DNA from: Candidatus Acidiferrales bacterium
GTDB taxonomy: Bacteria > Acidobacteriota > Terriglobia > Acidiferrales > UBA7541
Assembly (NCBI GenBank): GCA_035551975.1
Contig: DASZMG010000161.1
Coordinates: forward strand, 22,606 to 86,605
DNA: 64,000 nucleotides
Direction: 5' to 3'
The position numbers and the translations under genes are program-made. Below are positions 5,418 through 28,303 of the stretch, piece by piece. How positions within the stretch are numbered: position 1 is the first letter of the stretch; each line of letters starts with the position of its first letter. The notes under the pieces are model-generated. The model saw only the letters and a list, made by a program, of their open reading frames with translations. It was not told the DNA's origin and searched no databases.

Positions 5418-5426
5418 GTTTGCCTC

Positions 5427-6137: not shown

Positions 6138-6189
6138 CTCTTCACTTTTCCTTCGATTTTCGGCCTGGGCGCACCCTGAAAATGTGTGT

Positions 6190-7316: not shown

Positions 7317-8520
7317 GGCGTGAGAGAAAATCCATATCTTTGTCGCCGCGTCCGGACAAATTGAAGATGACGATTTCGGATTTTTTCATTTTAGGCGCGC
7401 GCCGCAATAGCTCGCCGAGCGCGTGCGAGGATTCAAGCGCGGGAATAATTCCTTCCTTGCGTGCCAGGGTTTTCGCCGCGTCGATCGCGACCTCGTCGCC
7501 AATGGCCGTATATTTCGCGCGGCCAATTTCAGCCAGCCAGGCATGCTCGGGACCGACAGCCGGATAATCGAGGCCGGCCGAAACAGAATGCGTGGTGGAA
7601 ATTTGGCCGTCGGGCGTTTGAAGAACGTAGGTGTAAGTGCCTTGCAGCACGCCAGGTTTGGCTCCTGAAAAGCCTTCCGCGGCAGCGAGGCGGGAGGCGT
7701 GTTCGCCGAGAACTTTTCCGCGTCCACCGGCTTCCACGCCGACCATTTTTACGCCGCTGTCGCCGAGGAAAGCGTGAAACAAGCCTATGGCATTCGATCC
7801 GCCGCCCACGCAAGCAAAAAGATAGTCGGGGAGGCGCCCTTCGGCTTCGAGAATTTGCCTGCGCGCTTCTTCGCCGATGATTTTGTGAAAGTCGCGCACG
7901 ATTTGCGGGTAAGGATGCGCACCCAGCACGGAGCCGAGAAGATAATGCGTGCTCTGGACGTTGGTAACCCAGTCACGCATGGCCTCATTGATAGCGTCCT
8001 TCAGAGTGCGGCTGCCGGAATCGACTCCGACAACTTCGGCGCCAAGCAGCCTCATGCGAAACACGTTGAGGCGCTGGCGTTCCATATCCTCGGTGCCCAT
8101 GTAGACGGTGCAGGAAAGGCCGAGTAGCGCCGCGACGGTCGCCGTGGCGACGCCATGCTGGCCCGCGCCCGTTTCGGCAATCACGCGCTTCTTGCCCATG
8201 CGCGCGGCCAGCAAACCCTGGCCGAGGCAATTATTGATTTTGTGCGAGCCGGTGTGCAGGAGGTCTTCGCGCTTGATGTAAATTTTCGGCCCGCCACACT
8301 GTTCTGTTAAGCGCGAAGCAAATTGCAGCGGAGTGGGCCGGCCGGCGAAATCGTGAAGCAGCTTTGCGAGCTGCGCTTGAAATTTCGGGTCACTACTCGC
8401 GTCGGCGTAGGCGCGCTCGAGTTCCTCGAGCGGCGCCATCAATGTTTCGGGAACGTAGCGGCCGCCGTAGGGGCCATAGCGTCCTTTCGTGTCCGGTACA
8501 ACTTGTGTGGCGGAACTCAT
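7309..8520 (-). CDS. trpB: tryptophan synthase beta chain
   Basis: Start at [25 protein letters not shown] (ATG at 8518-8520), giving an ATGA overlap with the trpF stop. PLP-site context HTGSHKINN. Confidence 0.95.
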
Positions 8521-9179
8521 TTTGAACCTTTCCGTGCTTTTTCCACTTCGCGCATGAAAGCTTTCAATCGCTTGGGATCTTTCTTGCCTGGCTTCGATTC
8601 CACGCCGCTGCAAACATCCACGGCGTAGGGCTTCGCCGTACGAATGGCCTGCGCAACATTCTCCGGCGTGATGCCCCCCGCCAGAAAAAATTTTGCGCCG
8701 CGCCGCGCGCGCTCCGCGATGCGCCAGTCGAACGTGTGCCCGGTGCCGCCCCATTGCCTGGCATCGAAGCCGTCGAGCAAAAGCGCGCTGGCATGCTTGA
8801 AACGCGCAAGGTTCGCTGGCCGGAAAGATTTTTTCACGCGCACTGCTTTAATCACCGGCAGCGAACGGCCCAACCGCTGCACTGCCGCCGGAGATTCTTC
8901 TCCGTGAAGCTGCACGCGGTCGAGTCCAACAGATTCCGCGATCTCCAGCATCTTTTGTTCGCTTTCGTTCACGAACACACCGACGGAAGCTACATTTTTG
9001 GGTAGGCGGCGCACGATGAGCCGCGCCTTGGCAGGCGTGACGTAGCGTGGGCTGCCCGCATAAAAGTTGAAGCCGAGAAAATCGGCGCCTGCGTTGATCG
9101 CACGCCGCGCATCCGGCCAGTTGGTGATGCCGCAGATTTTCACTTTCACTTTGAGCGATTTCGCCATGGTATCGCTCAC
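8517..9179 (-). CDS. trpF: phosphoribosylanthranilate isomerase
   Basis: [35 protein letters not shown] is a TrpF signature. Located in the trp operon. Confidence 0.9.
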
Positions 9180-9991
9180 TCCGAGTGCCCGTTGTCGCCG
9201 CCGGCAATCAATTGGCGCAGCGGCTCGCCGGGATCTTCCGATTTCATGACCGTTTCGCCGATCAGAAAGGCGTCAAAGCCCGCGGCACGAAGGCGAGCGA
9301 GATCGGCGTGCGAATTCAGTCCCGATTCGCTGACGGCGATGCAATCGTCCGGGATAAATTCAATCAATTCGAGCGAGGTTTCCAGGCGCACTTCGAAATT
9401 GCGCAGATCGCGGTTGTTCACGCCCACGATTTTCGCCCCGACAGCCAAAATGCGGTCCAACTCCACGCGCGAGTGAACTTCGACCAGCGCCTCCATTTTC
9501 AGGGACCGGCCAAGTTCCAGAAGCTCACGCAAAGTGGCGTCGTCGAGAGCGGCGGCGATCAAAAGAAAAGTATCCGCGCCGGCCGCGCGCGCTTCCCATA
9601 CCTGCCAGGGATCGATAATGAAGTCTTTGCGGAGGATGGGAATGTGAGTGACTTTTTTTACTTCCTTGAGGTGGACAAGCGAACCGAGAAAAAATTCCTC
9701 TTCGGTGAGCACGGAGAGCGCGGCGGCGCCAGCGGCTTCGAGTTTCGGCGCAAGGAGCGAGGGCATGTAGTGCTCGCGAATTACGCCGCGCGAAGGCGAA
9801 GCTTTTTTCAGTTCGGCGATGATGTTGAAGTTGCTCCGTGTTAGCGCGGACGCGACATCGCGCGGCGGCTCCGCTTTTTGCACGGCGATTTTCAAAGCCA
9901 CATCGGGCAGCACCCGCTTCCGGTGCGCCACCGATTCGCGGCGCGCGTCGACAATCTTGTCGAGGATGGTTTTTTCGCGTGTGGCAGCCAT
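9176..9991 (-). CDS. trpC: indole-3-glycerol phosphate synthase
   Basis: IIAELKKASPSRGVIR, ALSVLTEEEFFLGS and GVNNRDLRNFEV are TrpC signatures. 4-nt overlap with trpF. Confidence 0.95.
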   Translation of the reverse strand: MAATREKTILDKIVDARRESVAHRKRVLPDVALKIAVQKAEPPRDVASALTRSNFNIIAELKKASPSRGVIREHYMPSLLAPKLEAAGAAALSVLTEEEFFLGSLVHLKEVKKVTHIPILRKDFIIDPWQVWEARAAGADTFLLIAAALDDATLRELLELGRSLKMEALVEVHSRVELDRILAVGAKIVGVNNRDLRNFEVRLETSLELIEFIPDDCIAVSESGLNSHADLARLRAAGFDAFLIGETVMKSEDPGEPLRQLIAGGDNGHSE

Positions 9992-10094: not shown

Positions 10095-11795
10095 TCAATT
10101 TGGCTGGGTTATACCCGTGAGCAGCGGCTGAGAGAAGCGGATGGGAATGCCAAAATTCGAGCCACCAAAGCCTTTCAGCACGGCGAAGGTAACCCCTATC
10201 ACCTTGCCATCGGGATTGATGAGCGGCCCGCCAGAGCCGCCGGAAGTTGTCTGCGCGTCGAACACAATTTTGTCCGGCAGAACGTCTCCAATGTGCCCCT
10301 GGGTAATCAGCGGGCGGATCAGATTGCGGCGAGCAAGTTCATCGAGCACCTGAGAAATATCGGCGCCGCTTGCGGATATGATTTTCTGCGAGGTATCTTC
10401 ATCGGTGCGCGCCAGCAGGGCGGCCAGGCCCGTGGCGTAGCCCATCAGCACAATTGATTCGCCGGGCTGGGCAGCGGTCTTGCCGGGGTCGATGGTTAGC
10501 ACGGTGCGCTTCAGATCCTGCATGTTGACGCTGATAGTGGCAAGATCGGTTTCTTTCGAGATGGTTTGGATTTCGGCGCTAAAGGCGCGCGGATCGCCGG
10601 GGAAATAGGCGCGTATCTCGGAGATTTCCGCCTGCACGCCTTCGCCGCCCAGGAAATCGAGGTCGTCGTTCTTCCACCAGGGTTCTGCGACGTGGCGGTT
10701 GGTGATGACGCGTCCGTTCGGCCCGGCCAGAAACCCGGTGCCGAAGACATCCATTTTTACTTCGGGACCGCGGCCGTCGAGGGTGATGATGGGATTCCCG
10801 CTGCTGTCCTGGATGGGCTCTCCCTGTGGATTCAGGCCCGCATAGCGAAGGCGTTGGCCCGATTGCTGATTGCGAAAGGCTACCGAGACATGCAACAGGC
10901 AGACGCTTTGGACGTCCGCTGGAATGACAGCTTCTGCCGAGCCGCGCTCCTGCTCGATGCGCTGCAGACGCGCGTTGGTCTCTGCGAGCTGGCTTCGCAG
11001 GGCCGAAAGGTCACTGGTGCTTGGATCCGCGGTGGCAATGCGCGATTTTAGATCCGCGGCTTTCTTTTTGAGGTCGTCCTTGCTGGCCAGCGGGGCTTCC
11101 TGGGACTCCTGTGAGGCGCGCAGCTTGCGAATTTGAGCAAGCAGATCCTGCTGGCGGATGATTCCGCCTTCGAGGCCGGCAATGAGTTTGGTTGTGCGCA
11201 GGTCCTGCTTTTGCGTGCTGCGCGCGAACAGAAAATAAATGCCGGCCATAACCACGGCAAGCGCGAGCACCGACGTGAGACCGATCTTCAGGCGGCGATC
11301 GAGGCTGAACGCGTCGCTGGTCATTTTCTCGGTGACGGCGAGCGCTTCGAAGGCGGTGTGGGCCATCTGCTGGCCCTCCTCGGCAATTTGCAACTGGCGG
11401 CGCAACCCGTTTTCGGTTTTCAGCAGCCGAAGTTGGTTGCGGATGCGCGCGAGAAGCTCGGTTTGGACGCAGGGACATGAAATGGCATCATCGGCGCCAT
11501 ATTCGAGGGCCGCCGTGCGTTGCGAAGCCTCGGGGCCGACAAGCAGAATCACACGCGCCGCGGAGGTGGGCGCTGCGCCGCGAATTGTGGCAAGCAACTC
11601 GCGCGCTTCCGGGGTCGCACCGGGACAGTCGAGCAGCAGCAGATCGGCTGCGGACTGGCGTGCAGCTTCGAGCATTTCAGTGGGCGACGAAAAGCGGGTC
11701 ACTTCGTGGCCTGCGGCTTGCAACGCGGTTTGCAGGGTGCCGGCGGTTGCCGCGTCAGGCTCGAGCAGGATGATTTTTTCGCGGGTGTCATTCAT
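10095..11795 (-). CDS. response-regulator receiver domain fused via coiled-coil and one TM helix to a trypsin-like (S1/DegP-type, no PDZ) serine protease domain
   Basis: N-terminal REC (KIILLEPDA...ADLLLLDCPG). TM helix IGLTSVLALAVVMAGIYFLFA. Coiled-coil stretch. C-terminal triad candidates VITNRHVAE (His), ETDLATISV (Asp) and TTSGGSGGPLIN (Ser). Confidence 0.8.
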   Translation of the reverse strand: MNDTREKIILLEPDAATAGTLQTALQAAGHEVTRFSSPTEMLEAARQSAADLLLLDCPGATPEARELLATIRGAAPTSAARVILLVGPEASQRTAALEYGADDAISCPCVQTELLARIRNQLRLLKTENGLRRQLQIAEEGQQMAHTAFEALAVTEKMTSDAFSLDRRLKIGLTSVLALAVVMAGIYFLFARSTQKQDLRTTKLIAGLEGGIIRQQDLLAQIRKLRASQESQEAPLASKDDLKKKAADLKSRIATADPSTSDLSALRSQLAETNARLQRIEQERGSAEAVIPADVQSVCLLHVSVAFRNQQSGQRLRYAGLNPQGEPIQDSSGNPIITLDGRGPEVKMDVFGTGFLAGPNGRVITNRHVAEPWWKNDDLDFLGGEGVQAEISEIRAYFPGDPRAFSAEIQTISKETDLATISVNMQDLKRTVLTIDPGKTAAQPGESIVLMGYATGLAALLARTDEDTSQKIISASGADISQVLDELARRNLIRPLITQGHIGDVLPDKIVFDAQTTSGGSGGPLINPDGKVIGVTFAVLKGFGGSNFGIPIRFSQPLLTGITQPN

Positions 11796-15081: not shown

Positions 15082-15786
15082 CTAGTCCGCGGAAGCGTCG
15101 GAAGCGGGCACCAATTCAGGCTCAAATTCGCTGGCCTGCATTTCGGTTGCGAGGGACGAAAACCGTTGCATGATTTCGTTCAGGCGCAGCGTCATGCGGT
15201 GGATGGTTTGGATCTGCTCGCGGGTTCTTTCAAATGCCTGGCCAGGCTCGAAGAGAAGCAGGTCGGCGTTGCCCAGAATGGAAGTGAGCGCGTCGTTGAC
15301 GCCAGGACGCATGTCCAGCATGTAACGGCCGAGCGCGGCATAGGCTTGCGATTCGACAACGCAACGTTCGGCGCGGTGCGCGCGTCCGACTGCTTCGACG
15401 CGGCGCAGGATTTCATTTCCGAGCAGACTGAGATTTGCCGCCCAGTCTTCGCGGCGTTCCAGAACCAGCAGAGCGGGGTGGCTGGTTTGTAGCGCATGGC
15501 TTTCACGCACTTCCGCCGTCAAGTAGATGACTGGTTTGCCTGTGGCAGCGTTCAGGATGGACAGCAGCAAGGAACGCGCATCGTTGCGCAAGGCGCCGGC
15601 GATGATCAGATCGTGCTGCGACGCGGCCGCGGGCCGCCAGGTGTCGCTGGTGGCCAGCGTGATTTCCGGAGCAGACTTTTCGCTTTGCCACCGCGCAAGA
15701 AGAGGGCGAGCGAATTCCGGATCGTCCGACAGAATCAAAACACTCGGACGTGCTATCGAGGAACGAGGTTCTTCGCGGTGGGTCAC
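15082..15786 (-). CDS. hypothetical two-component mimic: receiver-like N-domain plus DHp (HisKA)-like helix, apparently lacking both phospho-acceptor residues and any ATPase domain
   Basis: SVLILSDDPEF...HDLIIAGAL looks REC-like with no Asp at the acceptor position. PGVNDALTSILGNADLLL aligns to the H-box SHELRTPLTSILGYAELL with Pro in place of His. GTGA overlap with the upstream gene. Confidence 0.6.
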   Translation of the reverse strand: MTHREEPRSSIARPSVLILSDDPEFARPLLARWQSEKSAPEITLATSDTWRPAAASQHDLIIAGALRNDARSLLLSILNAATGKPVIYLTAEVRESHALQTSHPALLVLERREDWAANLSLLGNEILRRVEAVGRAHRAERCVVESQAYAALGRYMLDMRPGVNDALTSILGNADLLLFEPGQAFERTREQIQTIHRMTLRLNEIMQRFSSLATEMQASEFEPELVPASDASAD

Positions 15787-17339
15787 GATTGAAGCTTTTC
15801 TGCCTCTTCGATGGACGAGACCAGGCGCTTTGCGCTGATTCCCAGGTTGATGGCGGATTCTGTGTTATTCATGCGCTTGGCGTTCTCCACCCGGCCCTGA
15901 AGATAGGAAATCTCCGCGCGCGCGAACGAGAGCGATGAAGCGAGCGCCTTCTGCTCGCCGGAACGCTTGCGCTGATCGATGGCCACGGCCAGCAAAGAAC
16001 GGGCAACCACGGCACGGCGAATGTCTTCCGACTTCACGCCGTTGTCGCCGGTGAAAGCGGCCACTTCCCAGGAGGAAAGCAGCACCTTGGTGTCCTGCAA
16101 AGATATGGTAGCCATGGCGCGCGCGCCGGTGCTGGGAACTCCGGTGAGTTGCTGAGTAATGCGCTTCGCGCAACCTTCCGCACCGAGAGCGTTCGATGAG
16201 GCTGGAGCTTCGTCGATATTCTGCGCTTGCTCGGAGCCGGCTTGATCTCCGCGACCCTTCCAGAAGCGGCCCCATTTGAATCTTGGCGCCGGCGTCTCGC
16301 GTTTGTTCTGTAGGGCTACGGGACTGTCTTTTGCGGCCTGGTCCACATCCTGAGTGGTTCTCTGAGATTCCGCCTGATGCAGCGCATCCTCCAGGTCGGT
16401 TCGCAGCGCCTGGAGCTGCTCGAAGGAGCGCGTGACCGAGCCTTCCGTATAGTCCTTTTGGAATGGCTGTTTCCAGTTCGCACAGAAGTAGCGAAGTTGG
16501 GAAGTAGTTTCCGCGGCGGAAAGGCCGGCCCGGCGGCAATCCACCGTCTTCTTGCCTTTCGCTTCAAGGGCGTCGATTGCCTCGCCCATAGCTTTCAAAT
16601 CGTTATGAAGCACGCGAATAAAAGCACGGCGCAGCAGAAAATTGAAGCGCGAGAAGGCAATCAGGGCCGCGGGCTCGTAAAAGGCGACTCCGATGGAATC
16701 TTTCACCAGCCTGCTTTGCTCGAAAATGCCGGTTTCCGTTACGTCGCGAAGGCAATGGCAATATTCGAGGTCCGCCAGGATTTTCTCGAGCGGACCGATG
16801 CATTCGCTAGTTTGCGCGGGGCTGGAGATGACCGGCTGTAGAACACGGGCAACGTCGTCGATCCCAATTTCCTCGCGGTAAAGTTCTTCCGGCGCGCACA
16901 GCGCAAAGTATTGCGCCAGCAGCCAGTCCAGCTTGTCGCGATGAACGACGGTTCGATCGAGCTTCTTCACGTGGCGCTGGATGAAAGCGCGCAGGCTGGG
17001 CTCGCTCCCGTTCAGGATTTCCGAGGGAATCTGGCGGAGCTGATAGGCAAGCACACTCGCGTCGATTTCATCGAGCCACTTCAGGTCGCGGTCGAAGGCG
17101 CTACGCGTGGGACGCGCCGGTGGCACTTCGCCCCCGGGATAGGGAGCGGGAATCAGCTTGAATTGCGAAGCAAGGGCGGCATAAATCGGATATGCCAGCC
17201 GAGCCTCGGCCCATTGAGCGGCCAATTCAGCATTCGTTTTTTTTGCCTGGCTTGGGTGTGTATCGGCGGAAACTCCGGCAACTCCCGATGGGTTCATAGT
17301 GGTAGTCGACAAGGTCTGGCTCACGGTTTGACGATCCAA
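15783..17339 (-). CDS. hypothetical protein (518 aa), no recognisable domain, no TM segment or signal peptide seen
   Basis: Long ORF in the operon. TTG start at 17339 is preceded by a strong SD (GAAGGAGAGG). Coupled to the downstream gene by a 4-nt overlap. Confidence 0.7.
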   Translation of the reverse strand: MDRQTVSQTLSTTTMNPSGVAGVSADTHPSQAKKTNAELAAQWAEARLAYPIYAALASQFKLIPAPYPGGEVPPARPTRSAFDRDLKWLDEIDASVLAYQLRQIPSEILNGSEPSLRAFIQRHVKKLDRTVVHRDKLDWLLAQYFALCAPEELYREEIGIDDVARVLQPVISSPAQTSECIGPLEKILADLEYCHCLRDVTETGIFEQSRLVKDSIGVAFYEPAALIAFSRFNFLLRRAFIRVLHNDLKAMGEAIDALEAKGKKTVDCRRAGLSAAETTSQLRYFCANWKQPFQKDYTEGSVTRSFEQLQALRTDLEDALHQAESQRTTQDVDQAAKDSPVALQNKRETPAPRFKWGRFWKGRGDQAGSEQAQNIDEAPASSNALGAEGCAKRITQQLTGVPSTGARAMATISLQDTKVLLSSWEVAAFTGDNGVKSEDIRRAVVARSLLAVAIDQRKRSGEQKALASSLSFARAEISYLQGRVENAKRMNNTESAINLGISAKRLVSSIEEAEKLQS

Positions 17340-17668
17340 TTCTCGACCTCTCCTTCAAATCGCGCGGCGACGGCTTTACTCCCGTGGTGATAGCGGACAG
17401 CTACCACCGTTGCGCGCGCGTCCAGAGATCGGTCCGAACTAACGACGCGAATATGATCTTCAAATTCCAACGGAAGCGACGACACGAACAAAATTTCATT
17501 TGCGGTGCCAAATTCCAGAACGGTTCTTTCTTGCAGGCGCCGGCGTCCGTTGCTACGCGTTACCAGCCGAACCGGTATGCGAATCGAGCAAGAATTCGGA
17601 AAAAGCTCAGCGAGCTTGTCTATACAGCTTTCTTCAATGGGAGTTGCGACGGCCGCCTCGCGAGGCAT
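17321..17668 (-). CDS. small PilZ-like protein (partial motif set)
   Basis: 115 aa with RIPVR (RxxxR-like) near the N-terminus and a beta-rich remainder. SD AAGGA lies 8 nt upstream of the ATG at 17668. No clear DxSxxG motif. Confidence 0.55.
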   Translation of the reverse strand: MPREAAVATPIEESCIDKLAELFPNSCSIRIPVRLVTRSNGRRRLQERTVLEFGTANEILFVSSLPLEFEDHIRVVSSDRSLDARATVVAVRYHHGSKAVAARFEGEVENWIVKP

Positions 17669-17731
17669 CCTGTTTCCTTAGGGCTGAAAGCTTATTGCAA
17701 AGCGCACTTGTTCTGGCCCGAACCGAAAAGA

Positions 17732-17747
17732 TGCACGAAGCGGGCCA
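17732..17747 (-). promoter_or_regulatory. candidate sigma-54 (-24/-12) promoter for the PilZ-like / 518-aa / mimic operon
   Basis: The minus strand reads TGGCCC-GCTTC-GTGCA with exact GG-N10-GC spacing, about 65 nt upstream of the ATG at 17668. Confidence 0.45.
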
Positions 17748-17873
17748 AAGAAAAGGAGGCGATAGTGACGCTAAGTCTTGGTCGCTGCGTGGATTAAGGG
17801 AGAGGCTTCCGTGGTCTTGGTCTCAACCTGAAACACATGCGTCTCATTCGCACCGCCGGCCCCAATCGTCAGC

Positions 17874-19277
17874 CTATCGCCCAGCCTGGGCGAACTGTGG
17901 TCTTTCAGAAGGCCGCAACGGGATGTTATAGCGCTTTAATTTTCGGTAGAGGGTCGCGCGACTGATGCCGAGCATTTTCCCGGCGAGCGCTTTGTCTCCG
18001 TGAGCCTGTTCGAACACCCGTTGAATGGTGATCCGTTCCAGGTCAGCAAGCGCCGTGGTTGAAAGCGATGTGCCGTCGTTCACGATCAATCCGGCTTCCT
18101 GCGTATCTCGAATCGCCGGAGGCAGGTCTTCCATATCAATCATATTGTCTTCCCCGAGCGCCAGTGCACGAGCAATGCAATTTTCCAACTCGCGGACGTT
18201 TCCCGGCCAGTCGTACTGCAGGAATGCTTTCATAACGGCGGTGGAAACCTGAATGGCCCTGCCCGGTGCGTACCGATCCAAAAAACAGTGTACTAGCTGC
18301 GGAATATCGGAACGGTGTTCCCGCAACGACGGCAGCCGGATGGTCACTACGTTGAGCCGGAAATAGAGATCTTTGCGGAATGTGCCGCCGCGATAGGCTT
18401 CTTCCAGGTCGCGGTTGGTAGCCGCGATCACGCGGACATTAACGGAAACCTTCTCATTGCTGCCCACCGGCCGCACTTCGCGCTCCTGCAGCACCCGCAA
18501 AAGCTTGGCCTGCATCTCGAGCGGCAACTCGCCAATTTCGTCCAGGAAGATCGTGCCCCCGTTGGCGGCCTGGAATAGTCCGGATTTCGCTTTGAGCGCG
18601 CCGGTAAACGCGCCTTTATGATGGCCGAAAAGTTCGCTTTCCATCAGCGTGGGAACTAACGTGCCGCAATCCACTGCAATAAAGGGCATTTTCGCGAGGG
18701 ATCCGCGAAAGTGAATGGCGCGGGCAACCAGTTCTTTCCCCGTTCCACTCTCGCCCATGATCAGAACCGGCGCGCGGTTGTCCTTGAGTCGGGAAACGAT
18801 TCGCAGCACATCCTGGATTTTTCCGGAAGTGCCCACGATTCCGTCCAACTGCGATTCAGTTTCGGCGCGTTCCCTCAGGAAATCGTTTTCGGTGACCAGG
18901 CGCACTTTTTCCGCCATGCGCTGAAGCAGCAATCGCAGACGTTCGACGCGAAACGGCTTCTCGATATAGTCGTAAGCCCCCTTGCGCATAGCGTCGACGG
19001 CCGATTCGATGGAACCGTATCCGGTCATGATGGCCACTTCGGTACGCGGGTTCGATTGCTTGATCTTGCGGAGAAGGTCGAGGCCCGACATCGTAGACAT
19101 CTTCAAGTCCGAGAGCACAATGTCGGTGGGGGATCCTTCGAGAAGTTCCGCCGCGGTTTCGGCGCTTTCCGCTTCGCCACACACGAAGCCAAGGCCCTGC
19201 CCCACTGTCAGGCACAGCCGCCGGATGCTCTGTTCGTCATCGACTACCAGAAAGCGAAGCCTCAACTCATCCGTCAT
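17874..19277 (-). CDS. sigma-54-dependent response regulator (NtrC family: REC - AAA+ - HTH)
   Basis: REC ([13 protein letters not shown]...DIVLSDLKM). AAA+ domain with Walker A GESGTGKE and the sigma-54 contact loop GAFTGA. C-terminal Fis-type HTH ([18 protein letters not shown]). Start taken at MTDELRLRF. Confidence 0.9.
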
Positions 19278-19624
19278 AGTTTTTTTAAGTCCCAGTCGAC
19301 TGAAACTCGTCAGCGGGGCTGAATTTTGCCCGCCGCTGCAACACGCTGCCACCCACGCGCCTCAGGGTTACTTACGAACACAAAGGCGCTATTTCGGTTG
19401 ATGGAACGAAGTTATGAGCCATCTCAAAATGAGTCAACGACACGGGTAACTCGTGTTGCGTAAGTGCCAACTCGGAACAGTCGTAATTTGAGACACTTTC
19501 GGCCCCGCTTTACCCCTCAATGAGACAACTCCCCCCATTGCAGCTGGAGAGCACAGCTCTCAAACCCCAACTCACACCGAAGCAGTAACTTGCCGAGGTT
19601 ATCGCTTTGGAACAAATGTGCCGA

Positions 19625-19640
19625 TGGCACTGGCCGTGCA
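19625..19640 (+). promoter_or_regulatory. candidate sigma-54 (-24/-12) promoter for the chemosensory operon
   Basis: TGGCAC-TGGCC-GTGCA with exact GG-N10-GC spacing, about 175 nt upstream of the MCP ATG. Lies in the 539-bp divergent region shared with the NtrC-type activator gene. Confidence 0.6.
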
Positions 19641-19816
19641 ATTTCACTCACCGGATTTCCATGCGGGCGCGCCACGGCCGGCACGAGAGACCGACAAATG
19701 CGAGTCTGGCCGCTCAACACGCGGTCAAAGATTGTTTGTTTCTAACAATTTGATGGAAGAAGCCCCGGCATGAACAGGAGAACGGCGGCGAATGCGGACC
19801 CGGGGGAGGCATCTTG

Positions 19817-21823
19817 ATGACGATCGGTAAGAAGCTCTATCTGAGATTTGGCGCGGTCCTTGCGATCATGCTCTGTTTGCTGATGCTGAATATTTTTACT
19901 CTTCGGCGTCAATTCGCGGCCCGAGCGGCGGTGGCCTCGACGCTCTTTGACGTACAGACCATCGAAAGCGTGCGCTACCAGATCATGGAGAACCGCCTGG
20001 CGCTCGGCGATTATCTTCGCAGCGGAGACCGGCGCGACGAAGAGCGCGTGAACAAAGGCGTGAACGATTTACGCCAGTTGCTGCACCAGGGAGAGGGTAT
20101 GGCGGAAGACCCGGAATTGCGCGGAGCTCTCGCACAGGTGGAGGAGAACGAGCGCGTCTGGGCGGATAGTTTTGCCAGTTCGATGTTGCAGAAACGGCAC
20201 CAGGTGGACTCCGGGAAAGCGACAATCTCGGAACTCGAAGCCTATTATCTGCAGCAAAATCCTGGCGGTTTTAACAGTAAGTCCAACAGCATTTTGGATG
20301 AGGCGAGCCGCGAGGTACGACGGGCGCAGGAGAGGTCCAATGAATCTTCCGACTCTGCCACCATGTGGACCGCCATTGTGGCCACAGTGGGGACACTACT
20401 GGCGCTGTTGCTCGGTGGACTGATCGCATTTCACACCGCGAAATCCATTCAGGAGCCGCTGCATTATTTCATCAATGTGGCCCGTCGGATCGGAGAAACG
20501 GGCGACCTGGACCAGTCGATTGACATTAACCGCAGCGATGAAGTGGGTCTGCTCGCCGAACACTTCAACAAGATGATCGTGCATTTGAAGGAGATGGCTT
20601 CGGTTTCGGCGGCCATTGCCGAAGGCGAGCTCTCTGTTTCAGTGAAGCCACGCTCGGAGCGCGACACCATGGCCACCGCTTTTGAGCGCATGACGCATGG
20701 GTTGCGCGAGATCGTGCGGCAGGTGCGTGATAGCGCTTCGCAAGTGGCCGCGGGCGCCGGGCAAATGGCCGGCGCGTCGGACGAATCGGCAAAAGTGAGC
20801 GTCCGCGCGGCCTCCGCTATCGATGAAGTGACCAGCACCATGCATGAGATGAGCATCAACGTCCAAAATGTCGTGAAAAACACGCAAGTGCAATCGTCGA
20901 GTGTCGCGGAAACCTCCGCATCGATCGACGATATGGTCACCTCGATTCAGCGAGTGGCGGACACTGCAAGATTGTTGGTGGAAATGTCGCATCGCTCACG
21001 GGAAGAGGCCAAAACCGGCATGTCCACCATGGATAAAGCCACCGCAGGCCTCAACCGCGCCAGCCAATCGATTCAGTCTTCCTCCGAGATTATCGATGCG
21101 CTGGGACGTCGCGCGGACGATATCGGCAAAATCGTGGAAGTGATCGATGACTTGGCTGAGCAGACCAACCTGTTGGCCTTGAATGCAGCCATTGAGGCCG
21201 CGCGTGCCGGTGAACACGGATTGGGCTTTGCGGTGGTGGCCGAGGAAGTGCGCAAACTCGCCGAAAAATCCACGCAGTCCACCAAGGAAATTTCGGAACT
21301 GATTGAAGGCATTCAGAAGGAAGCGCGCGAAGCCGTGGACAACATGGAACACAGCACCACCATGGTGCACGAAGGCTTGGTGCTGAATAAGGATCTCAGC
21401 ATCGCGCTCGACAAAATCTCCGCCGTGGTTTCTGAGGTGTACAAATTCTCCCAGGAGATCGGCGCCGCAACCACGGAGCAGTCCAACGGCTCGGCGCAGA
21501 TCGCCAAAGCCACCAATCGCCTTACAGAAATTACCCACGAGATCAATTCCTCTGTCGAGGAGCAGGCTACCGGTGTCCAAGCGGTAGCTCGCGCGATGAA
21601 CCGCATGCGCGAGATGGTGCAGCAATCGACTTCGAGCTCCACCGAACTCGCCGCGGCAGCCGAGCAAATGTCCAAGCTATCGCGGGCGCTTCTCGAGTCC
21701 ATGGACCGCTTTGCCATCGATGAAAGCCACCCGCCGCAGCCGCCGAGGCCTCTGCCAAGAAACACCAGCGTCCGGCCCGAGCCGAAACCTATCCCGGAAT
21801 ATGCCGAGACGCTGCGGTCCTGA
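19817..21823 (+). CDS. methyl-accepting chemotaxis protein (two TM helices, periplasmic helical sensor, HAMP, MCP signalling domain)
   Basis: HAMP ([24 protein letters not shown]...[15 protein letters not shown]). Conserved hairpin [45 protein letters not shown] lies 7 nt upstream of the ATG at 19817. Confidence 0.9.
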
Positions 21824-21837
21824 GCGGCGGGCGAACC

Positions 21838-22326
21838 ATGGATAAGGAACTCCAGATCGTCGGATTCCAGATCGGGGCCGAAACCTTCGGGCTGCCGATT
21901 GCCGCCGTGCGCGAAATCATTCGCGTGCCCGAGATTACCGCGGTTCCAAATGTGCCGGATCACATCGTAGGTGTGATCAACCTCCGCGGAAAAATTGTTC
22001 CGGTAATCGATTTGCCGAAGAGATTCGGCGCGGCTCCTTCGGAGCGAAACGCCAAAAATCGCATTGTTGTAGCGGAGCTCGACGGGCGATCGGTGGGACT
22101 CATCGTTCATTCGGCGTCCGAAGTCCTGCGGCTGCCGCAGTCTAAGATCGAAAGTCCTCAGGATCTATTTTCCGATAGCTCCATCGACTACGTATCGGGC
22201 GTAGGCAAATTGAATGGGCGGCTCGTGATTCTTCTCGATCTGCAAAAGATTGCCAGGCGAGGAGAATTGCGCAACGCGGACCTGCACGAACAATTCGCCA
22301 CGCCCAGCGCAGTAACAGTCGTGTAA
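21838..22326 (+). CDS. cheW: chemotaxis coupling protein CheW
   Basis: 162 aa. FQIGAETFGLPIAAVREIIRVPEITAVPNVPDHIVGVINLRGKIVPVIDL is typical of the CheW domain. Confidence 0.9.
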   Translation: MDKELQIVGFQIGAETFGLPIAAVREIIRVPEITAVPNVPDHIVGVINLRGKIVPVIDLPKRFGAAPSERNAKNRIVVAELDGRSVGLIVHSASEVLRLPQSKIESPQDLFSDSSIDYVSGVGKLNGRLVILLDLQKIARRGELRNADLHEQFATPSAVTVV

Positions 22327-22361
22327 CACATACAGCCCGGAACTCAGGTTCAGGAGAGAAC

Positions 22362-23270
22362 ATGCCCACGCTCGCGGCGGACATTCCGGTTAGCCAGGCT
22401 GAATTGAGGCTCCTGCAGACGCTCATCTATCAGGAATGCGGGATGTTTTTCGACGAACGCCGCATGCAGTTTTTGCAGGAGCGCGTGCAGCAGCGGTTGA
22501 AAACGTCCCAACTGGAGTCGTTTTACAGCTATTACCTGCTGCTTACGTCGGCGGAGGGCCGACATGAACTGTCTGCGCTGCTCGAGCACCTCAGCGTGAT
22601 CGAAACCAGTTTTTTCCGGATCCGTCCACAGCTCGAAATTTTCAAGAAGCAGGTTTTGGACGATCTGTTGAAGCGGAAGGAAGCAGCGCGCGATTACAGT
22701 CTGCGCATCTGGAGCGCCGGATGCTCCACCGGGCAGGAGCCCTACACGCTGGCCATGCTGATTTGCGACGCTCTGGCATATTACGGGCTGCGCGGCTCGC
22801 CGCTGCCAGAGAAAATGATTCCGCGGCCGCTGGTTCCTGCGCCATGGAATGTCGAAATCCTGGCTTCGGACATCAATTATTCGGCACTGCTCACCGCGCA
22901 GCAGGGAAGCTACACCGAGGCACAGATGGAGACGGTCGATTATCCCTCCCGCCTGCGCTATTTCGACAAAGCCGGCGACCGCTATTTGGTGAAGCCGGAA
23001 CTGAAAAAGTTCGTCCACTTCGATTTCCACAACCTGAAAACGGAATTCCTGCCGCTTCGAAATGACGTGATCTTCTGCCGCAACGTAATGATCTATTTCG
23101 ACGCCGCGGAGCAGCGGCGTCTGATCGACAAGCTGAATTATTGCCTGAATCCCGAAGGCTATCTCTTTGTCGGGCACGCGGAGAGCCTGGCTGGTCTTAC
23201 AGAGAAATTGCGCGCGGTTCATCAGAACGGGGCAACCGTGTACCAGCGCGTTGAAAAGGCGGCTCGGTGA
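22362..23270 (+). CDS. cheR: chemotaxis protein methyltransferase CheR
   Basis: ETSFFR, IWSAGCSTGQEPYTLAM and IFCRNVMIYFD are CheR SAM-methyltransferase signatures. Confidence 0.9.
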   Translation: MPTLAADIPVSQAELRLLQTLIYQECGMFFDERRMQFLQERVQQRLKTSQLESFYSYYLLLTSAEGRHELSALLEHLSVIETSFFRIRPQLEIFKKQVLDDLLKRKEAARDYSLRIWSAGCSTGQEPYTLAMLICDALAYYGLRGSPLPEKMIPRPLVPAPWNVEILASDINYSALLTAQQGSYTEAQMETVDYPSRLRYFDKAGDRYLVKPELKKFVHFDFHNLKTEFLPLRNDVIFCRNVMIYFDAAEQRRLIDKLNYCLNPEGYLFVGHAESLAGLTEKLRAVHQNGATVYQRVEKAAR

Positions 23271-25321
23271 ATTTTCCCTCGAATCAGCACGCTTCGGAGC
23301 TTCTAGAAGTTTTCTTCGAGAGCGCCGACGAAATTCTGGAAGGGATGAATCGCGCAGGCTTGGCGCTCGAAGCGAATCCAGGTGATGTGAAGCATCTGCG
23401 CCATGTTCGCCGCGCGGTGCACACGCTCAAGGGAGACTCCGCGGCTTGCGGATTCCGGGAACTCAGCGAGTTAGCCCACCGTCTGGAAGATGTGCTCACG
23501 CCGGAAGTCGCGGGCAAAAATACGCAGAAGATCGCGGAAGTGGTGCTGGCGGCCACCGATTCATTCCAGCAATGTCTGGCGGCGCACCGCCGAAATGAGG
23601 CGCCTCCCGCCTCGAACAGTTTGCGGGAACTTATCAATGACTTGTTGCGCGAGCACGAGAATGCCGAATCGCCCCCTTCGCAGGCGAAGCCGGAGTGGAC
23701 GGAGTATGAGCGGCTGCTCATTGAGGAGGCCAACCGGCGAGGCGAGCGCGTCTGTCAAGTATCAGTGCGTCTTACGCTCGAATCACAAGCCATCGGATTC
23801 GAGCTGGCGCGCAAGGCGCTCGAAAGCGCGGGCCGCGTAATCGCTCTTCAACCTAAGGAGTTCGTCGCGTCCGCAACCGCTTCATGGGTACATGCTGCGT
23901 TGGCAACCCCTGTTCCAACAGAGCACCTGAAACGGAGATGCTCCGTGCCGTCGATCGTTGCCGAAGTAGCCGTGGAAATTTTGGACGTGCCGGCGCCCGC
24001 GTCCGCGGCATCCCATGGCGCTGCGAACGACGCGCTCCAGGTGCTGTTGGAAGCAGAAGCCGCCGCCACCACACGCACCTTGCCCAGCACGCCAAGAGCG
24101 ATTCCGCAACCTTCGGAGACAAGCAGCTTGCGCGTGGAGCCGGTTCGCATCGACAGCGTGATGAACCTGGTCGGCGAGCTGATCATCGGCAAATCGATGT
24201 TGCAGCGTGCCGTGGATGATTTTGGCCGCCGCTATCCGAAAGATCCGCTGCGGGGCAAGTTTTCCGACGCGCTTTCCTTTCAGTCCCGGGTGCTGGGCGA
24301 GTTGCAAAAATCCGTGATGAAGATTCGCATGGTGCCCGTCGAGCAGCTTTTCCGGCGTTTTCCGCGCATCGTGCGGGATGTGGCGCGGCTGCGCAACAAG
24401 GAAATCGCGCTGGAGGTTCGCGGGCAGAACACGGACCTCGACAAAAGTATTCTCGATACGCTGGCCGAGCCGGTGGCTCATTTGGTCCGTAATTCGGCCG
24501 ACCACGGGATTGAATCCACCTCCGCGCGCAAGACCGCGGGAAAGCCGGCGCGCGGAATGATTCGGCTCAGCGCTTACCACGAAGGCGATCAGGTGGTGAT
24601 TGAAGTGGCCGACGACGGGTGCGGGCTGGACAAGGAACGAATTCTGCAGCGTGCTATTGAGCGCGGTATTGTCACGCCAAATGAGGCTCAAAAACTCAGC
24701 GATTCCGAAGCGCAGCAATTGATTTTCCGCGCCGGCCTGAGTACCGCCGAAGAAATTACCGAGATATCAGGTCGCGGAGTGGGACTCGATGTCGTCAAGT
24801 CCGTGCTGGAGAACTTGAAGGGTTCCATCGAAGTGCACAGCGAACACGGGCGCGGCACTACCTTTCGGCTGCTCGTGCCGTTGACCCTGGCCAGCATTCA
24901 AGCCCTCCTTTTCAACGTGAACGAGCGCTTGTACGCCGTACCCATCGCCTCGGTGGTGGAAATTACGCGCGTCGCCGAAGGCCAGATCCATCGCATTGAG
25001 GGCAGGGAAGTGTTTCAACTCCGCCATCAGCTTCTGACGCTGATGCGCCTGGAACAACTGGAGCCTGTCTCACGCAACGAGCACCAGAAAAGAACCTTTG
25101 TGATCGTAATCGGAACGGGCGCTCGCCGCTTTGGCCTGGCAGTGGACAAGCTCATGGGCGAAGAAGAGTTGGTTATCAAAGCGCTCGAAGATCAATTGGT
25201 TACGTCTCCGCTCATCAGCGGGGCGTCCATACTTGGTGATGGAACAGTGGTGTTGATTCTAAACGTGTCCGCGCTCGTCTCCCAGTACACGAAAGCGGTT
25301 CCGGCAGGAGCGATGGCATGA
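23267..25321 (+). CDS. cheA: chemotaxis histidine kinase CheA (Hpt-dimerisation-HATPase-CheW-like)
   Basis: Hpt H-box HTLKGDSAACG, N-box HLVRNSADHGIE, G-boxes DDGCGLD and GRGVGLDVV, and a C-terminal CheW-like domain. GTGA overlap with cheR. Confidence 0.9.
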   Translation: MNFPSNQHASELLEVFFESADEILEGMNRAGLALEANPGDVKHLRHVRRAVHTLKGDSAACGFRELSELAHRLEDVLTPEVAGKNTQKIAEVVLAATDSFQQCLAAHRRNEAPPASNSLRELINDLLREHENAESPPSQAKPEWTEYERLLIEEANRRGERVCQVSVRLTLESQAIGFELARKALESAGRVIALQPKEFVASATASWVHAALATPVPTEHLKRRCSVPSIVAEVAVEILDVPAPASAASHGAANDALQVLLEAEAAATTRTLPSTPRAIPQPSETSSLRVEPVRIDSVMNLVGELIIGKSMLQRAVDDFGRRYPKDPLRGKFSDALSFQSRVLGELQKSVMKIRMVPVEQLFRRFPRIVRDVARLRNKEIALEVRGQNTDLDKSILDTLAEPVAHLVRNSADHGIESTSARKTAGKPARGMIRLSAYHEGDQVVIEVADDGCGLDKERILQRAIERGIVTPNEAQKLSDSEAQQLIFRAGLSTAEEITEISGRGVGLDVVKSVLENLKGSIEVHSEHGRGTTFRLLVPLTLASIQALLFNVNERLYAVPIASVVEITRVAEGQIHRIEGREVFQLRHQLLTLMRLEQLEPVSRNEHQKRTFVIVIGTGARRFGLAVDKLMGEEELVIKALEDQLVTSPLISGASILGDGTVVLILNVSALVSQYTKAVPAGAMA

Positions 25322-26466
25322 GCCGCAAGATTCGTGTGCTGGTGGTTGACGATTCGGCGTTGATGCGGAAGCTGATTCCTGAAACCTTGCGGCGCGACCC
25401 CTCCATTGAAGTAGTGGGCACCGCGATGGATGGTTTAATCGGGCTGAAGCGTATCGAAGACTTGCATCCGGATGTGGTCACTCTCGACCTGGAAATGCCG
25501 CGGATGGATGGAATGGAAATGCTGCGGCAGATTACCCGCAAGCAGCGCATTCCGGTGATCATTTTTGGCGCGCGCTCCGAGCAAGGCGCCGATTTTGCGT
25601 TGCGAGCGCTTTCGGTAGGTGCCTTTGATGTGGTCACTAAGCCAGACGAAGCCGCTTCCGGCAATCTGGAACAAGTCGCTGCGGAGCTAGCCTCTCGCGT
25701 CAGGGCTGCCGCGAAAGCCGGCGCGCCAAAGCTGATACCTGGCGAAGAACTGCTCCCGAATCAAGCGCGCAAAGTCCTACTCGGTCCGCGGCCAGCCTCG
25801 CGTGTGATTGGAATCGGTGTCTCGACCGGCGGCCCCGCCGCTCTGCAATATCTGTTCTCGCAACTTCCCGCCACTTTCCCAGGCTGTCTCATGGTGGTTC
25901 AGCACATGCCTGAAGGGTTCACGGAAAGATTCGCCCGGCGTCTGAACGATTCTTCGGCCATTGAAGTCAAAGAGGCGCGATCGGGCGATCTGCTGCTCGC
26001 AGGCCGCGCTTTGATTTGCCCGGGAAACCGTCACCTGAGAGTCCGTCGCATGGACCGCGGAGACGTGGCCATGGTAGTCGATGCCGCGCCGGTAAATGGC
26101 CACAAGCCTTCGGTGGATGTCTTATTCAATTCATTGGCGCAGGAATTTCGTGCCAAATCGGCCGCCGTTCTGATGACAGGCATGGGTGAGGATGGCGTTG
26201 CGGGTCTGGGAGCGGTTCGGGCTGCGGGAGGATACACCGTCGCGCAAAGTCCCGAAACCTGCGTGGTGGACAGCATGCCCCGCTCGGCAATCGATCGCAG
26301 GTTTGCGCTCCGTGTGGTTCCGCTGGATCAGATGGCGGGCGCACTGGAAGCGATCGGCGAGCCGAGCCAAGAATGTGCCTCCGGGCTGAGCCATTCGCCA
26401 GTAAGTTCCGCAACCAGTCCAACAGTCAGTCCCGACGATGTCGCGATGAGAAGGAGATCGCTATGA
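25318..26466 (+). CDS. cheB: protein-glutamate methylesterase CheB (REC + esterase)
   Basis: REC (IRVLVVDDSALMRK...DVVTLDLEMPRMDG). Esterase motifs GVSTGGPAAL, VVQHMPEGFT and MTGMGEDG. ATGA overlap with cheA. Confidence 0.9.
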   Translation: MSRKIRVLVVDDSALMRKLIPETLRRDPSIEVVGTAMDGLIGLKRIEDLHPDVVTLDLEMPRMDGMEMLRQITRKQRIPVIIFGARSEQGADFALRALSVGAFDVVTKPDEAASGNLEQVAAELASRVRAAAKAGAPKLIPGEELLPNQARKVLLGPRPASRVIGIGVSTGGPAALQYLFSQLPATFPGCLMVVQHMPEGFTERFARRLNDSSAIEVKEARSGDLLLAGRALICPGNRHLRVRRMDRGDVAMVVDAAPVNGHKPSVDVLFNSLAQEFRAKSAAVLMTGMGEDGVAGLGAVRAAGGYTVAQSPETCVVDSMPRSAIDRRFALRVVPLDQMAGALEAIGEPSQECASGLSHSPVSSATSPTVSPDDVAMRRRSL

Positions 26467-26906
26467 GCGGATTTGAACCCTTGCGGCGAAAACAGGACGG
26501 CCAGCCAGTTCGTTTCCTGATCGTCGACGACTCCGTTTTCGCCCGCAAGAGCATCGCGAAAATGGTGGAGAACTTTGGCGGCCAGGTGGTCGGCGAAGCG
26601 GGCGACGGCTGCACCGCAATCACCGAATATGCGCGCACCCGCCCCGACATGGTCCTCATGGATATCACCATGCCCCACATGGAAGGCATTGAAGCTGTCG
26701 AGCGCATCGTGAAGCAGGATCCCGAAGCGCGCGTGGTCATGGTCTCCTCTGTGGGATACCAGGAAAACATTCTGGCCGCGCTGCAAAAAGGCGCGCGCCA
26801 TTTCGTGCAGAAGCCGGTGAAGGCCGATGTGCTTTATGACGTATTACGCTTCGTCTTGGCTCAGGAAGCGCCTGCCCCAATGGCTGCTCAGGGAGGAAAT
26901 CAATGA
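26463..26906 (+). CDS. cheY: single-domain response regulator CheY
   Basis: Start at MSGFEPLRR (ATGA overlap with the cheB stop). VRFLIVDDSVFARK...DMVLMDITMPHMEG...VSSVG...K. Confidence 0.9.
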   Translation: MSGFEPLRRKQDGQPVRFLIVDDSVFARKSIAKMVENFGGQVVGEAGDGCTAITEYARTRPDMVLMDITMPHMEGIEAVERIVKQDPEARVVMVSSVGYQENILAALQKGARHFVQKPVKADVLYDVLRFVLAQEAPAPMAAQGGNQ

Positions 26907-27406
26907 AGATGGATTTGATTCAGCCGTTCATCGGCTCGCTCGATGCTGTGTTGGCGCAAATGACCGGCGCACCGGTCACCATCGCCGATGTGACCATGGA
27001 AGAAGAGGCTTACCAGCGCAAGGGCATCGCAGCGGTGGTCGTTTTCCAGGGACAAATCGAGGGCCGCGTTGTAGTCGATGTGGATCCCGGCGTCGCCGCG
27101 AAAGTCGCCGGAAATATGTCCGGCGGGGAAGTCGAGGCTTCGGAACCAATCGTCCCCGAAGCTATCTGCGAGCTCGCCAACATGGTGATTGGCAATGCCG
27201 TCACGCAGTTGAACGATCAAGGCTCGCAATTCAAAGTCTTGCCGCCCTCGATCCTCACCGAAGAGCAATGCGCGAAAATCGGCTCGGACTCCGAAGCGAC
27301 CATTCTTTCGTTTCACACTCCGGCCGGCGAAGTTCGCTTGAACATTTCCATGCACTATCACACCCGACGGTTCGGCGAACGCTCGCCGGTAGCAATGGTC
27401 AGGTAA
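26903..27406 (+). CDS. cheX: CheY-P phosphatase CheX (CheC/CheX family, single active-site motif)
   Basis: A single E-x2-N...P motif (ICELANMVIGNAVTQLNDQGSQFKVLPP). 167 aa. ATGA overlap with cheY. Confidence 0.75.
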   Translation: MKMDLIQPFIGSLDAVLAQMTGAPVTIADVTMEEEAYQRKGIAAVVVFQGQIEGRVVVDVDPGVAAKVAGNMSGGEVEASEPIVPEAICELANMVIGNAVTQLNDQGSQFKVLPPSILTEEQCAKIGSDSEATILSFHTPAGEVRLNISMHYHTRRFGERSPVAMVR

Positions 27407-27433
27407 GCTCCACTCGAAGATCGCGCATTCTGA

Positions 27434-28303
27434 TTAGCGCGCCCGCGGTCCCACGCGGCGATACTCTGTGCCATGCCGGAACAATCCAGCCTTCGGCAAT
27501 TCCTCTGAATACACCACGCGTGCGGGAAGGAAAATATTCGCCGAATCCGGCGAATAGGGGACGGCCACTTCGATTGGCGCATTGGCTTCGAATCGCCGCT
27601 TACTGCGGAAACACATGCCAATCGGGGAAATGTCCTCGCAGACAGCAAGTTCGTCATCCTCGCCGGATTGGCGGATGCATGCCGTGAGTCGCGTTTGCAC
27701 CCGCAACCGCTGCCGCTCGCGCTGCTCCCCATTCCCGGGTTGCGGTTCCGCGGTTTCGGGGGCGCGTCGTGCCTTTGTTCCGCGGCTCGATGATTTTTTC
27801 TCTTCTTCGTGCGGCACCTGAACCCAGATGCTCGGCACATTGCATTTCTTGCAGTGCCGTGCGATTCCACGATTGCTCTCGAATGCCCGCAGTTCCATTT
27901 CGTTGAGGTAAGCCACCTCGCGCTGGTGGCAGTAGGTGCACTCCAGCAACATTTTGGCAACCGCTTCAGAGCTTTCCAGCACGGCCGGAAAGTCGACGCC
28001 CCACATATCGACTTCTTCACCCAGGATCTCCAGGCTGTAGAGATACCCGTCGCCCTGGCGTCCCATTTGATTGACGATACGCGCCTGGCCTTGCCTGCTC
28101 GACTCTGCTGGCGCCCGGCGGCGAATATGGATCTTCTGTTCGGGCTTCAAGTCGCGGGCCAGCGCAATGAGCGCTCCATTTTGGCTGACCATCACTGTTT
28201 TTGCCGGCTCATGGAATTCCTGGCCGTGCGCGTCAGTGCCCGAAGCGTCCAGCAGAACCGTCAGCGAAACCCGGTCGCTCGCGCGGCGCGAAGTTAAGGT
28301 CAT
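27434..28303 (-). CDS. PilZ - zinc ribbon - PilZ protein
   Basis: N-terminal RASDR...VSQNGALI is a partial PilZ motif set. Central CTYCH...CKKC is a four-Cys ribbon. C-terminal RQRLR...EDISPIGMCF carries canonical RxxxR and DxSxxG. Confidence 0.75.
   Translation of the reverse strand: MTLTSRRASDRVSLTVLLDASGTDAHGQEFHEPAKTVMVSQNGALIALARDLKPEQKIHIRRRAPAESSRQGQARIVNQMGRQGDGYLYSLEILGEEVDMWGVDFPAVLESSEAVAKMLLECTYCHQREVAYLNEMELRAFESNRGIARHCKKCNVPSIWVQVPHEEEKKSSSRGTKARRAPETAEPQPGNGEQRERQRLRVQTRLTACIRQSGEDDELAVCEDISPIGMCFRSKRRFEANAPIEVAVPYSPDSANIFLPARVVYSEELPKAGLFRHGTEYRRVGPRAR

Follow-up and report, generated by a model that had tools for sequence, protein, structure and literature searches.

The stretch of DNA analyzed here, 64,000 nucleotides (nt) of contig DASZMG010000161.1 from a Candidatus Acidiferrales bacterium and hereafter called the window, contains between positions 15082 and 28303 a chemosensory (che) operon, a divergently transcribed gene for an NtrC-family activator of sigma-54-dependent transcription and, downstream of the activator gene on the same strand, an operon of three genes for uncharacterized proteins. 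The che operon lies on the forward strand and comprises genes for a methyl-accepting chemotaxis protein (MCP; start at 19814 or 19817, end at 21823; Pfam HAMP and MCPsignal), CheW (21838-22326; Pfam CheW, E 1e-43), CheR (22362-23270; Pfam CheR and CheR_N), CheA (23267-25321; Pfam Hpt, dimerization, HATPase_c and CheW domains, without a receiver), the methylesterase CheB with its receiver (25318-26466; Pfam), the single-domain receiver CheY (26463-26906; Pfam Response_reg) and the phosphatase CheX (26903-27406; Pfam CheX and CheC). From cheR onward, neighboring genes overlap by 4 nt, with the sequence GTGA at 23267 and ATGA at 25318, 26463 and 26903. On the reverse strand, the activator gene (17874-19277, with the longest open reading frame (ORF) reaching 19352) encodes 467 amino acids (aa) with Pfam matches to Response_reg (E 1.7e-25), Sigma54_activat (E 2e-68) and HTH_8 (E 4e-11) and with the GAFTGA motif at residue 222. 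The protein thus combines a receiver, an AAA+ domain with GAFTGA and a Fis-type helix-turn-helix (HTH) domain, as is characteristic of NtrC-family enhancer-binding proteins. It reaches no NCBIfam equivalog cut-off, the best models being AtoC and NtrC, ahead of FlbD or FlgR.

The three genes that follow the activator gene were named U115 (17321-17668), U518 (15783-17339) and U234 (15082-15786) according to the length of their products in aa; all of them are ORFs on the reverse strand. The likely start codon of U518 is the GTG at 17324, and given this start both junctions of the operon are GTGA overlaps, i.e., the operon is translationally coupled. At the other end of the locus, a gene whose product has two PilZ stretches enclosing a zinc ribbon (27434-28303, reverse strand; Pfam PilZ, E 3e-14) is convergent with cheX. 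Its PilZ stretches flank a CxxC...CxxC arrangement and the C-terminal one contains both RxxxR and DISPIG. The same convergent position was found in 47 of the 55 metagenome loci with sufficient flanking sequence. The original prediction, which had been made from the sequence alone, had described the complete che gene set with its four overlaps, the divergent activator with receiver and GAFTGA loop, the three uncharacterized genes and the convergent double-PilZ gene, and all of these are borne out by the Pfam matches, the junction sequences and the ORFs. It had also stated that the 64 kb are devoid of flagellar, pilus and gliding genes. This is in accordance with a Pfam survey of the approximately 50 further ORFs of the window, in which housekeeping genes were found instead of any of these.

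For the comparison with other genomes, one genome per species was scanned for relatives of U518. In total, 497 species-level genomes were positive, and the best 80 loci, all from Acidobacteriota, were kept and searched with the proteins of the window by tblastn. Matches were obtained for the MCP in 80, for CheW, CheR, U234 and U115 in 79 each and for the activator in 78 of these 80 loci; CheY and CheX are conserved in the relatives as well. Gene order and orientation, with CheA, CheR, CheW and MCP divergent from activator, U115, U518 and U234, are kept in 77-80 of the 80 genomes, which is beyond what chance would produce. The relatives are members of UBA7541, an uncultured family from soil (Acidobacteriota subgroup 2), and the U518 protein of the window is 100% identical to a hypothetical protein from a metagenome-assembled genome of a Candidatus Acidoferrales bacterium. 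The order is also kept in three distant genomes with a U518 identity of no more than about 29-32%, among them that of the cultured Candidatus Koribacter versatilis Ellin345 (U518 homolog Acid345_1780, approximately 29% identical). The association of U518 and its two neighbors with the activator and the che operon, the absence of which would have refuted the original prediction, hence recurs in practically every relative examined. Literature searches found no paper describing this cluster in Acidobacteria.

Sigma-54 promoters were sought as GG-N10-GC matches to the consensus TGGCAC-N5-TTGCW that lie upstream of an operon, face it and are kept in the relatives. Of the intergenic GG-N10-GC matches, the two that score best in the window are oriented toward the che operon and the U operon. 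The top-scoring site of the window, at 19625-19640 (forward strand), precedes the che operon and is the -24/-12 element TGGCACTGGCCGTGCA; the element TGGCCCGCTTCGTGCA is found upstream of U115 (17732-17747, reverse strand). Both elements have equivalents in the Koribacter clade, and among the relatives the former is kept in 72 of 77 and the latter, in the form TGGC-N8-KTGCA, in about 72 of 79. Both predicted promoters therefore agree with the sigma-54 consensus in sequence, in orientation and in conservation.

A k-mer comparison across the relatives revealed the motif TGAGAC to be common to the regions upstream of both promoters. In the window this motif occurs 11 times (22.6 copies expected), and four of these copies are arranged as two tandem pairs, at 17846-17820 (reverse strand) and 19489-19526 (forward strand), which within the window are found only upstream of these two promoters. 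For TGAGAC-N10-30-TGAGAC the expectation in the window is 0.05, compared with two occurrences observed. The candidate activator-binding site of the U operon reads TGAGAC-N6-GTTTCA-N3-TGAGAC (17820-17846, reverse strand), and the candidate sites of the che operon consist of GTCGTA-N3-TGAGAC and a second TGAGAC 32 bp downstream (19480-19526, forward strand). A third related element, ATCTCA-N3-TGAGTC (19421-19435, forward strand), was read in the window sequence as part of a conserved longer stretch (...TCTCAnnnTGAGTCAA), and of 73 che-promoter regions from the relatives, 70 contain TGAGTCAA. The pair of the U operon lies at about -110/-90 in 61-70 of 74 relative loci; for the pair of the che operon the position is about -160/-130, as found in 58-66 of 73 relatives. 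Throughout 1.62 Mb of related loci, TGAGAC pairs are nearly confined to the two promoters (67 loci each); they additionally occur in 13-17 loci upstream of a second che cluster described below. In each pair, one TGAGAC forms the right half of a near-palindrome of 15 bp with a conservation of more than 90% per position, namely GTNTCA-N3-TGAGAC for the U operon (68 of 70 per position) and GTCGCA-N3-TGAGAC for the che operon (62-67 of 67 per position), while the Koribacter site, GTCTCA-N3-TGAGAC, is a perfect palindrome. Such a near-palindromic form is what would be expected for a dimeric Fis-type HTH domain, and the site was assigned to the activator because this is the sole sigma-54 activator encoded at the locus. 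That the U operon is a dedicated target of the activator, as had been proposed in the original prediction, is very probably correct, given its conserved sigma-54 promoter and upstream element and the near-universal co-occurrence with the activator gene. Since the che operon has the same type of sigma-54 promoter and the same upstream element as the U operon, it would also lie downstream of the activator.

Several genes found in the relatives are missing from the window. In 75 of the 80 relatives, a gene for a cytoplasmic kinase with GAF, PAS, HisKA and HATPase domains precedes the activator gene, and in 59 of the 80 it is also preceded by a gene for a 134-aa single receiver. Both genes overlap the respective next gene by 4 nt, forming one operon with the activator gene, which in most relatives is thus the last gene of a kinase-receiver-activator operon. 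It is likely that the usual phosphodonors of the activator in the relatives are the co-transcribed GAF/PAS kinase and the single receiver. The kinase of the UBA7541 lineage has 662 aa, about half the length of the one found upstream of the activator in the Koribacter clade, which has multiple GAF and PAS domains and a length of 1255-1284 aa (3907-7674 in locus L161 and 3837-7691 in locus L163). Between the che promoter and the MCP gene, 70 of the 80 relatives contain a gene for a secreted 118-aa TonB_C protein. This gene is the first of the che operon, also in Koribacter (4874-5230, reverse strand, in locus L010; 3192-3560 in L161; 3131-3490 in L163), and its product may be a periplasmic partner of the receptor.

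Furthermore, 64-73 of the 80 relatives carry, after the U234 gene, a second che cluster that is about 30% identical to the first one. It is arranged in the order CheY, CheW, MCP, CheR, CheA with two Hpt domains and a receiver, CheB, and one or two CheW, followed by a protein composed of a receiver and PatA_N (DUF4388); examples are located at 12425-21552 in L010 and at 12407-21530 in L164. A third conserved sigma-54 element, belonging to this second cluster, was found in 67 of 73 relatives; the cluster is present neither in the Koribacter clade nor in the window. No orthologs of the relatives' kinase, single receiver, TonB_C protein or second che cluster were found in the 64 kb, and a search for a copy of the kinase, the receiver or the second che cluster relocated within the window yielded none. 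In the closest relative (92% identity), whose locus lies on a contig of 3.4 Mb, the spacer is as short as in the window, indicating that the deletion is real. Judged from these sequences, the window genome and its closest relative have deleted the kinase, the single receiver, the TonB_C protein and the second che cluster, and the window would consequently represent a reduced version of the module.

These observations bear on the direction of signaling. According to the original prediction, the locus is wired like the Che3 system of Myxococcus xanthus, i.e., MCP and CheA would set the phosphorylation of the divergent activator, and the U operon would be the transcriptional output. The divergent layout of che operon and activator gene, which is kept in 78 of the 80 relatives, is in line with this proposal, as are the lack of a kinase beside the activator or elsewhere in the 64 kb and the activator receiver's alpha-1 helix, which is identical in genomes with and without the adjacent kinase, even though this comparison gives no guidance on a possible re-wiring. 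In addition, CrdA of M. xanthus is acted on by both the classical kinase CrdS and CheA3 (PMC3147164), so that the presence of a kinase at the locus is compatible with an input from CheA. However, Che3 is defined by its lack of CheY, with the NtrC homolog CrdA being the output (PMC3147164), whereas the operon of the window contains both CheY and CheX. Moreover, the che operon shares the type of sigma-54 promoter and the upstream element with its proposed output, and most relatives transcribe the activator gene together with those for a kinase and a single receiver. On these grounds a Che3/CrdA-like wiring is unlikely, and the signaling direction originally proposed is probably wrong or at best secondary. 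Nevertheless, an action of CheA on the activator could matter in the window genome, which has lost the kinase; an unlinked kinase, acetyl phosphate or CheA might serve there as the phosphodonor of the activator.

The proteins of the che operon were also inspected for hints to the type of pathway. The MCP consists of an N-terminal transmembrane/periplasmic region, a HAMP domain and a long signaling domain, of which residues 332-604 align without gaps over 273 residues with TM1143 of Thermotoga maritima (2ch7), which we take to be a receptor of class 44H. Receptors of this class group with F1 systems (bioRxiv 10.1101/2022.05.07.491037). CheA has one Hpt domain and no receiver, and its closest sequences in the PDB are the CheA proteins of Escherichia coli and T. 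maritima. The best single-domain NCBIfam match of CheY is the archaeal CheY_Halo, and CheX matches CheX_Thtogales, both below the cut-off. The CheX, the archaeal-like CheY and the CheA with one Hpt domain and without receiver would fit a taxis-type pathway with an output of its own. The same features, together with the alignment to TM1143 and its presumed class, could also be taken to suggest an F1-like flagellar chemotaxis operon under a sigma-54 hierarchy of the flagellar type, with the U proteins having functions in flagellum or motor control, e.g., U115 as a brake. Isolates of the Koribacter clade have flagella or flagellar genes (PMC13362970), and the proteins that match U115 by fold include MotI and YcgR (see below). 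Yet flagellar genes are found neither in the 64-kb window nor among the called genes of the three distant loci, and the activator is closer to AtoC/NtrC than to FlbD/FlgR in NCBIfam, which makes this explanation quite unlikely.

Concerning the three uncharacterized proteins, the AlphaFold2 model of U115 (predicted local distance difference test score, pLDDT, of 80) is a PilZ-type beta-barrel, and its top Foldseek matches in the PDB are PilZ domains, namely those of Alg44 (E 9.6e-4, TM-score about 0.5), BcsA, MotI, YcgR and PA0012. On the level of sequence, none of 27 members of the family matched Pfam PilZ (PF07238), even at E<=10. The canonical motifs for binding of cyclic di-GMP (c-di-GMP) are also not in place, as EFGTAxE is found at the position expected for DxSxxG and RIPVR lies inside the first strand. 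Based on the model, U115 may be regarded as a degenerate PilZ-fold protein, meaning that its earlier designation as PilZ-like holds for the fold and fails for the sequence family.

U518 is predicted to form two helical domains, the second one with a small beta-hairpin, connected by a disordered linker at about residues 333-382 (pLDDT 78, approximately 90 in the folded parts). Comparison of this model with the PDB by Foldseek yielded no match at E<0.001, and PDB sequence-profile searches with U115, U518 and U234 gave nothing useful. U518 belongs to no Pfam family, and neither the three U proteins nor the double-PilZ protein belong to any NCBIfam or PADLOC family; an interpretation as a defense system was dropped. 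More than 2771 homologs of U518 exist, all of them annotated as hypothetical. The family comprises 616 clusters at 50% identity, and its long members (611-785 aa) contain no fused Pfam domain that would hint at a function. Among the many invariant residues of the family are Cys148, Cys268, Cys390 and His245, and a metal or redox site is possible.

The N-terminal domain of U234 is a flavodoxin-like pseudo-receiver that has kept the VLIVSDD strand, with DLVIVG replacing the strand of the phosphorylated aspartate. Its C-terminal segment has a Pfam HisKA match below the cut-off (E 0.0015; HisKA is on record for the Koribacter homolog) and is homologous to the dimerization and histidine phosphotransfer (DHp) domain of the relatives' locus kinase (tblastn E 1.5e-4, hhalign E 6e-5). 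In this alignment, the column of the kinase's phosphorylated histidine is occupied by proline (Pro161 in the window protein), as it is in 78 of 80 sequences of the window lineage. The +1 position is never acidic in these 80 sequences, being Ser, Gly or Asn, and the +4 position is Asn in 76 of the 80 and Asp in the window. The protein ends about 20-25 residues past the DHp segment and thus contains no HATPase_c domain. With a two-helix DHp segment that lacks the phosphorylated histidine and a catalytic domain, U234 is not a HisKA kinase, and its original description as a mimic is supported. In HisKA domains, the requirement for the acidic residue at +1 is limited to kinase activity and that for the Thr/Asn at +4 to phosphatase activity (PMC3510030).

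Distant U234 homologs, i.e., those of the Koribacter clade and of L164 (11542-12234 in L161, 11516-12202 in L163 and 11579-12277 in L164), retain the histidine (MRHSLNNALTS), with no acidic residue at +1 and no ATPase domain. This implies that the U234 family has switched between phosphorylatable and phospho-dead forms and may go back to a transferase of the Spo0B/ChpT type that acted between single receiver and activator. The retained histidine, together with the gene for a single-domain receiver between the kinase and activator genes, would be in line with the remnant of a four-step phosphorelay from the kinase via the single receiver and the histidine-bearing DHp protein to the activator, in which U234 would derive from a phosphotransferase that is now non-functional or re-purposed. 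However, U234 is highly conserved despite the proline found in 78 of 80 sequences of the window lineage, which points to a function that requires no phosphorylation, and the window has kept U234 although the kinase and the receiver are gone. It is thus highly unlikely that the locus is best explained as a phosphorelay remnant.

Taken together, the explanation that we favor, and which as a whole appears on balance probable, is that the locus represents, in reduced form, a module that is conserved across the Terriglobia (Acidobacteriota) and in which the activator would drive both operons. It would bind the near-palindromic GTNNCA-N3-TGAGAC and the extra TGAGAC half-site approximately 75-145 bp upstream of the two sigma-54 promoters of the window and co-activate the che and the U operon from them, its usual phosphodonor being the co-transcribed GAF/PAS kinase that has been lost in the window genome. 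The che system would be an output of the activator, signaling through its own CheY and being reset by CheX, and U115, U518 and U234 would be co-expressed as accessory, output or feedback parts. U234 would most likely dock to a receiver, either that of the activator or CheY, without phosphotransfer, with a possible role as phosphatase or as sequestering factor. More tentatively, U115, U518 and U234 might constitute a hitherto undescribed, Terriglobia-restricted output or adaptor module, with the taxis-type CheA-CheY pathway controlling a non-flagellar output and U234 docking to a phosphorylated receiver; the second, Chp/Wsp-like pathway would then also feed this module in most relatives.

Some points speak against the favored explanation. 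The pairing of the 15-bp site with the activator has as its only basis the lack of any other sigma-54 activator gene at the locus, and rpoN is not encoded in the window. The unchanged alpha-1 helix of the receiver may mean that the partner of the activator is something common to all of the genomes, CheA being one candidate. In addition, the Asp at position +4 weakens the idea of a phosphatase function of U234 for the window genome, and the analysis does not point to a target of CheY, U115, U518 or U234.

Next to the genes discussed so far, a few features of the surroundings were recorded. A gene at 35895-37085 (forward strand) encodes a protein in which a domain with the metallo-beta-lactamase fold is fused to PilZ at the C-terminus; with it, the window has two true PilZ-domain proteins. 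A 566-aa protein with an N-terminal receiver and a C-terminal trypsin-like peptidase (10095-11795, reverse strand) adjoins the locus in the three closest relatives as well. The region at 6438-9991 (reverse strand), upstream of the locus, provides a housekeeping context with trpA, a trpB-like gene of the PALP family and a gene for TrpC (indole-3-glycerol-phosphate synthase, IGPS). Rfam gave no match in the window, and scans of the window for sigma-70 promoters and terminators remained at background level.

Acidobacteriota are among the most abundant soil bacteria, and the ways in which they sense and respond are scarcely understood. The module described here reaches at least 497 species-level genomes and includes three protein families unnamed in the databases, one of them with a fold that has no relative in the PDB. 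As the culturable Candidatus Koribacter versatilis Ellin345 has the full ancestral module, the predictions are open to laboratory testing, and the two predicted promoters and the 15-bp site are directly testable. As a caution, a che operon adjoining the gene of an NtrC-type activator does not by itself imply a Che3-like wiring.

Among the known systems, cascades of sigma-54 activators such as FleQ/FleR, FlrA/FlrC, FlgR and FlbD drive motility and chemotaxis operons. The locus shares with FleQ/FleR-type cascades an NtrC-family activator, sigma-54 promoters ahead of che genes and, in the relatives, an adjacent kinase; in contrast to them, the window has no linked flagellar genes, the activator is nearer to AtoC/NtrC, and the predicted regulon includes three novel proteins. 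Spo0B and ChpT are phosphotransferases of the DHp type, and the isolated DHp domain of EnvZ acts as a phosphatase. With these proteins U234 has in common a HisKA-like two-helix DHp segment without catalytic domain, in most members the asparagine linked to phosphatase activity and in distant lineages the histidine. It differs from them by the proline that replaces this histidine in the window lineage, by its N-terminal pseudo-receiver without the phosphorylated aspartate and by the fact that no sequence family covers it. With regard to the PilZ receptors for c-di-GMP (Alg44, YcgR, MotI, BcsA), U115 shares the predicted beta-barrel, and the nearby gene at 27434-28303 encodes a true PilZ protein; unlike these receptors, U115 fails to match Pfam PilZ and lacks the usual arrangement of N-terminal RxxxR and D/NxSxxG.

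With Che3 and CrdS-CrdA of M. xanthus (PMC3147164), the locus shares the che operon divergent from the gene of an NtrC-family sigma-54 activator, a classical NtrB-like kinase for this activator, here present in most relatives, and a probable use in gene regulation. In contrast to Che3, which is not known to lie behind the promoter type of its own activator, the operon of the window contains CheY and CheX and sits behind a predicted sigma-54 promoter with the element of the U operon. Furthermore, the window locus has no CrdB- or CrdC-like gene, and nothing in Che3 corresponds to the U genes. CheA proteins that combine several Hpt domains with a receiver belong mostly to the type IV pili (Tfp) or alternative cellular functions (ACF) classes (PMC10782961). 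The second che cluster of the relatives, with its CheA of two Hpt domains and a receiver, has this layout of Pil-Chp/Wsp-type systems; it differs from them in sitting behind a sigma-54 promoter of its own in the relatives, and it is not found in the window. Overall, the two-component sigma-54 regulon and the chemosensory pathways of the locus are of known types, whereas their combination with three unnamed protein families is new.

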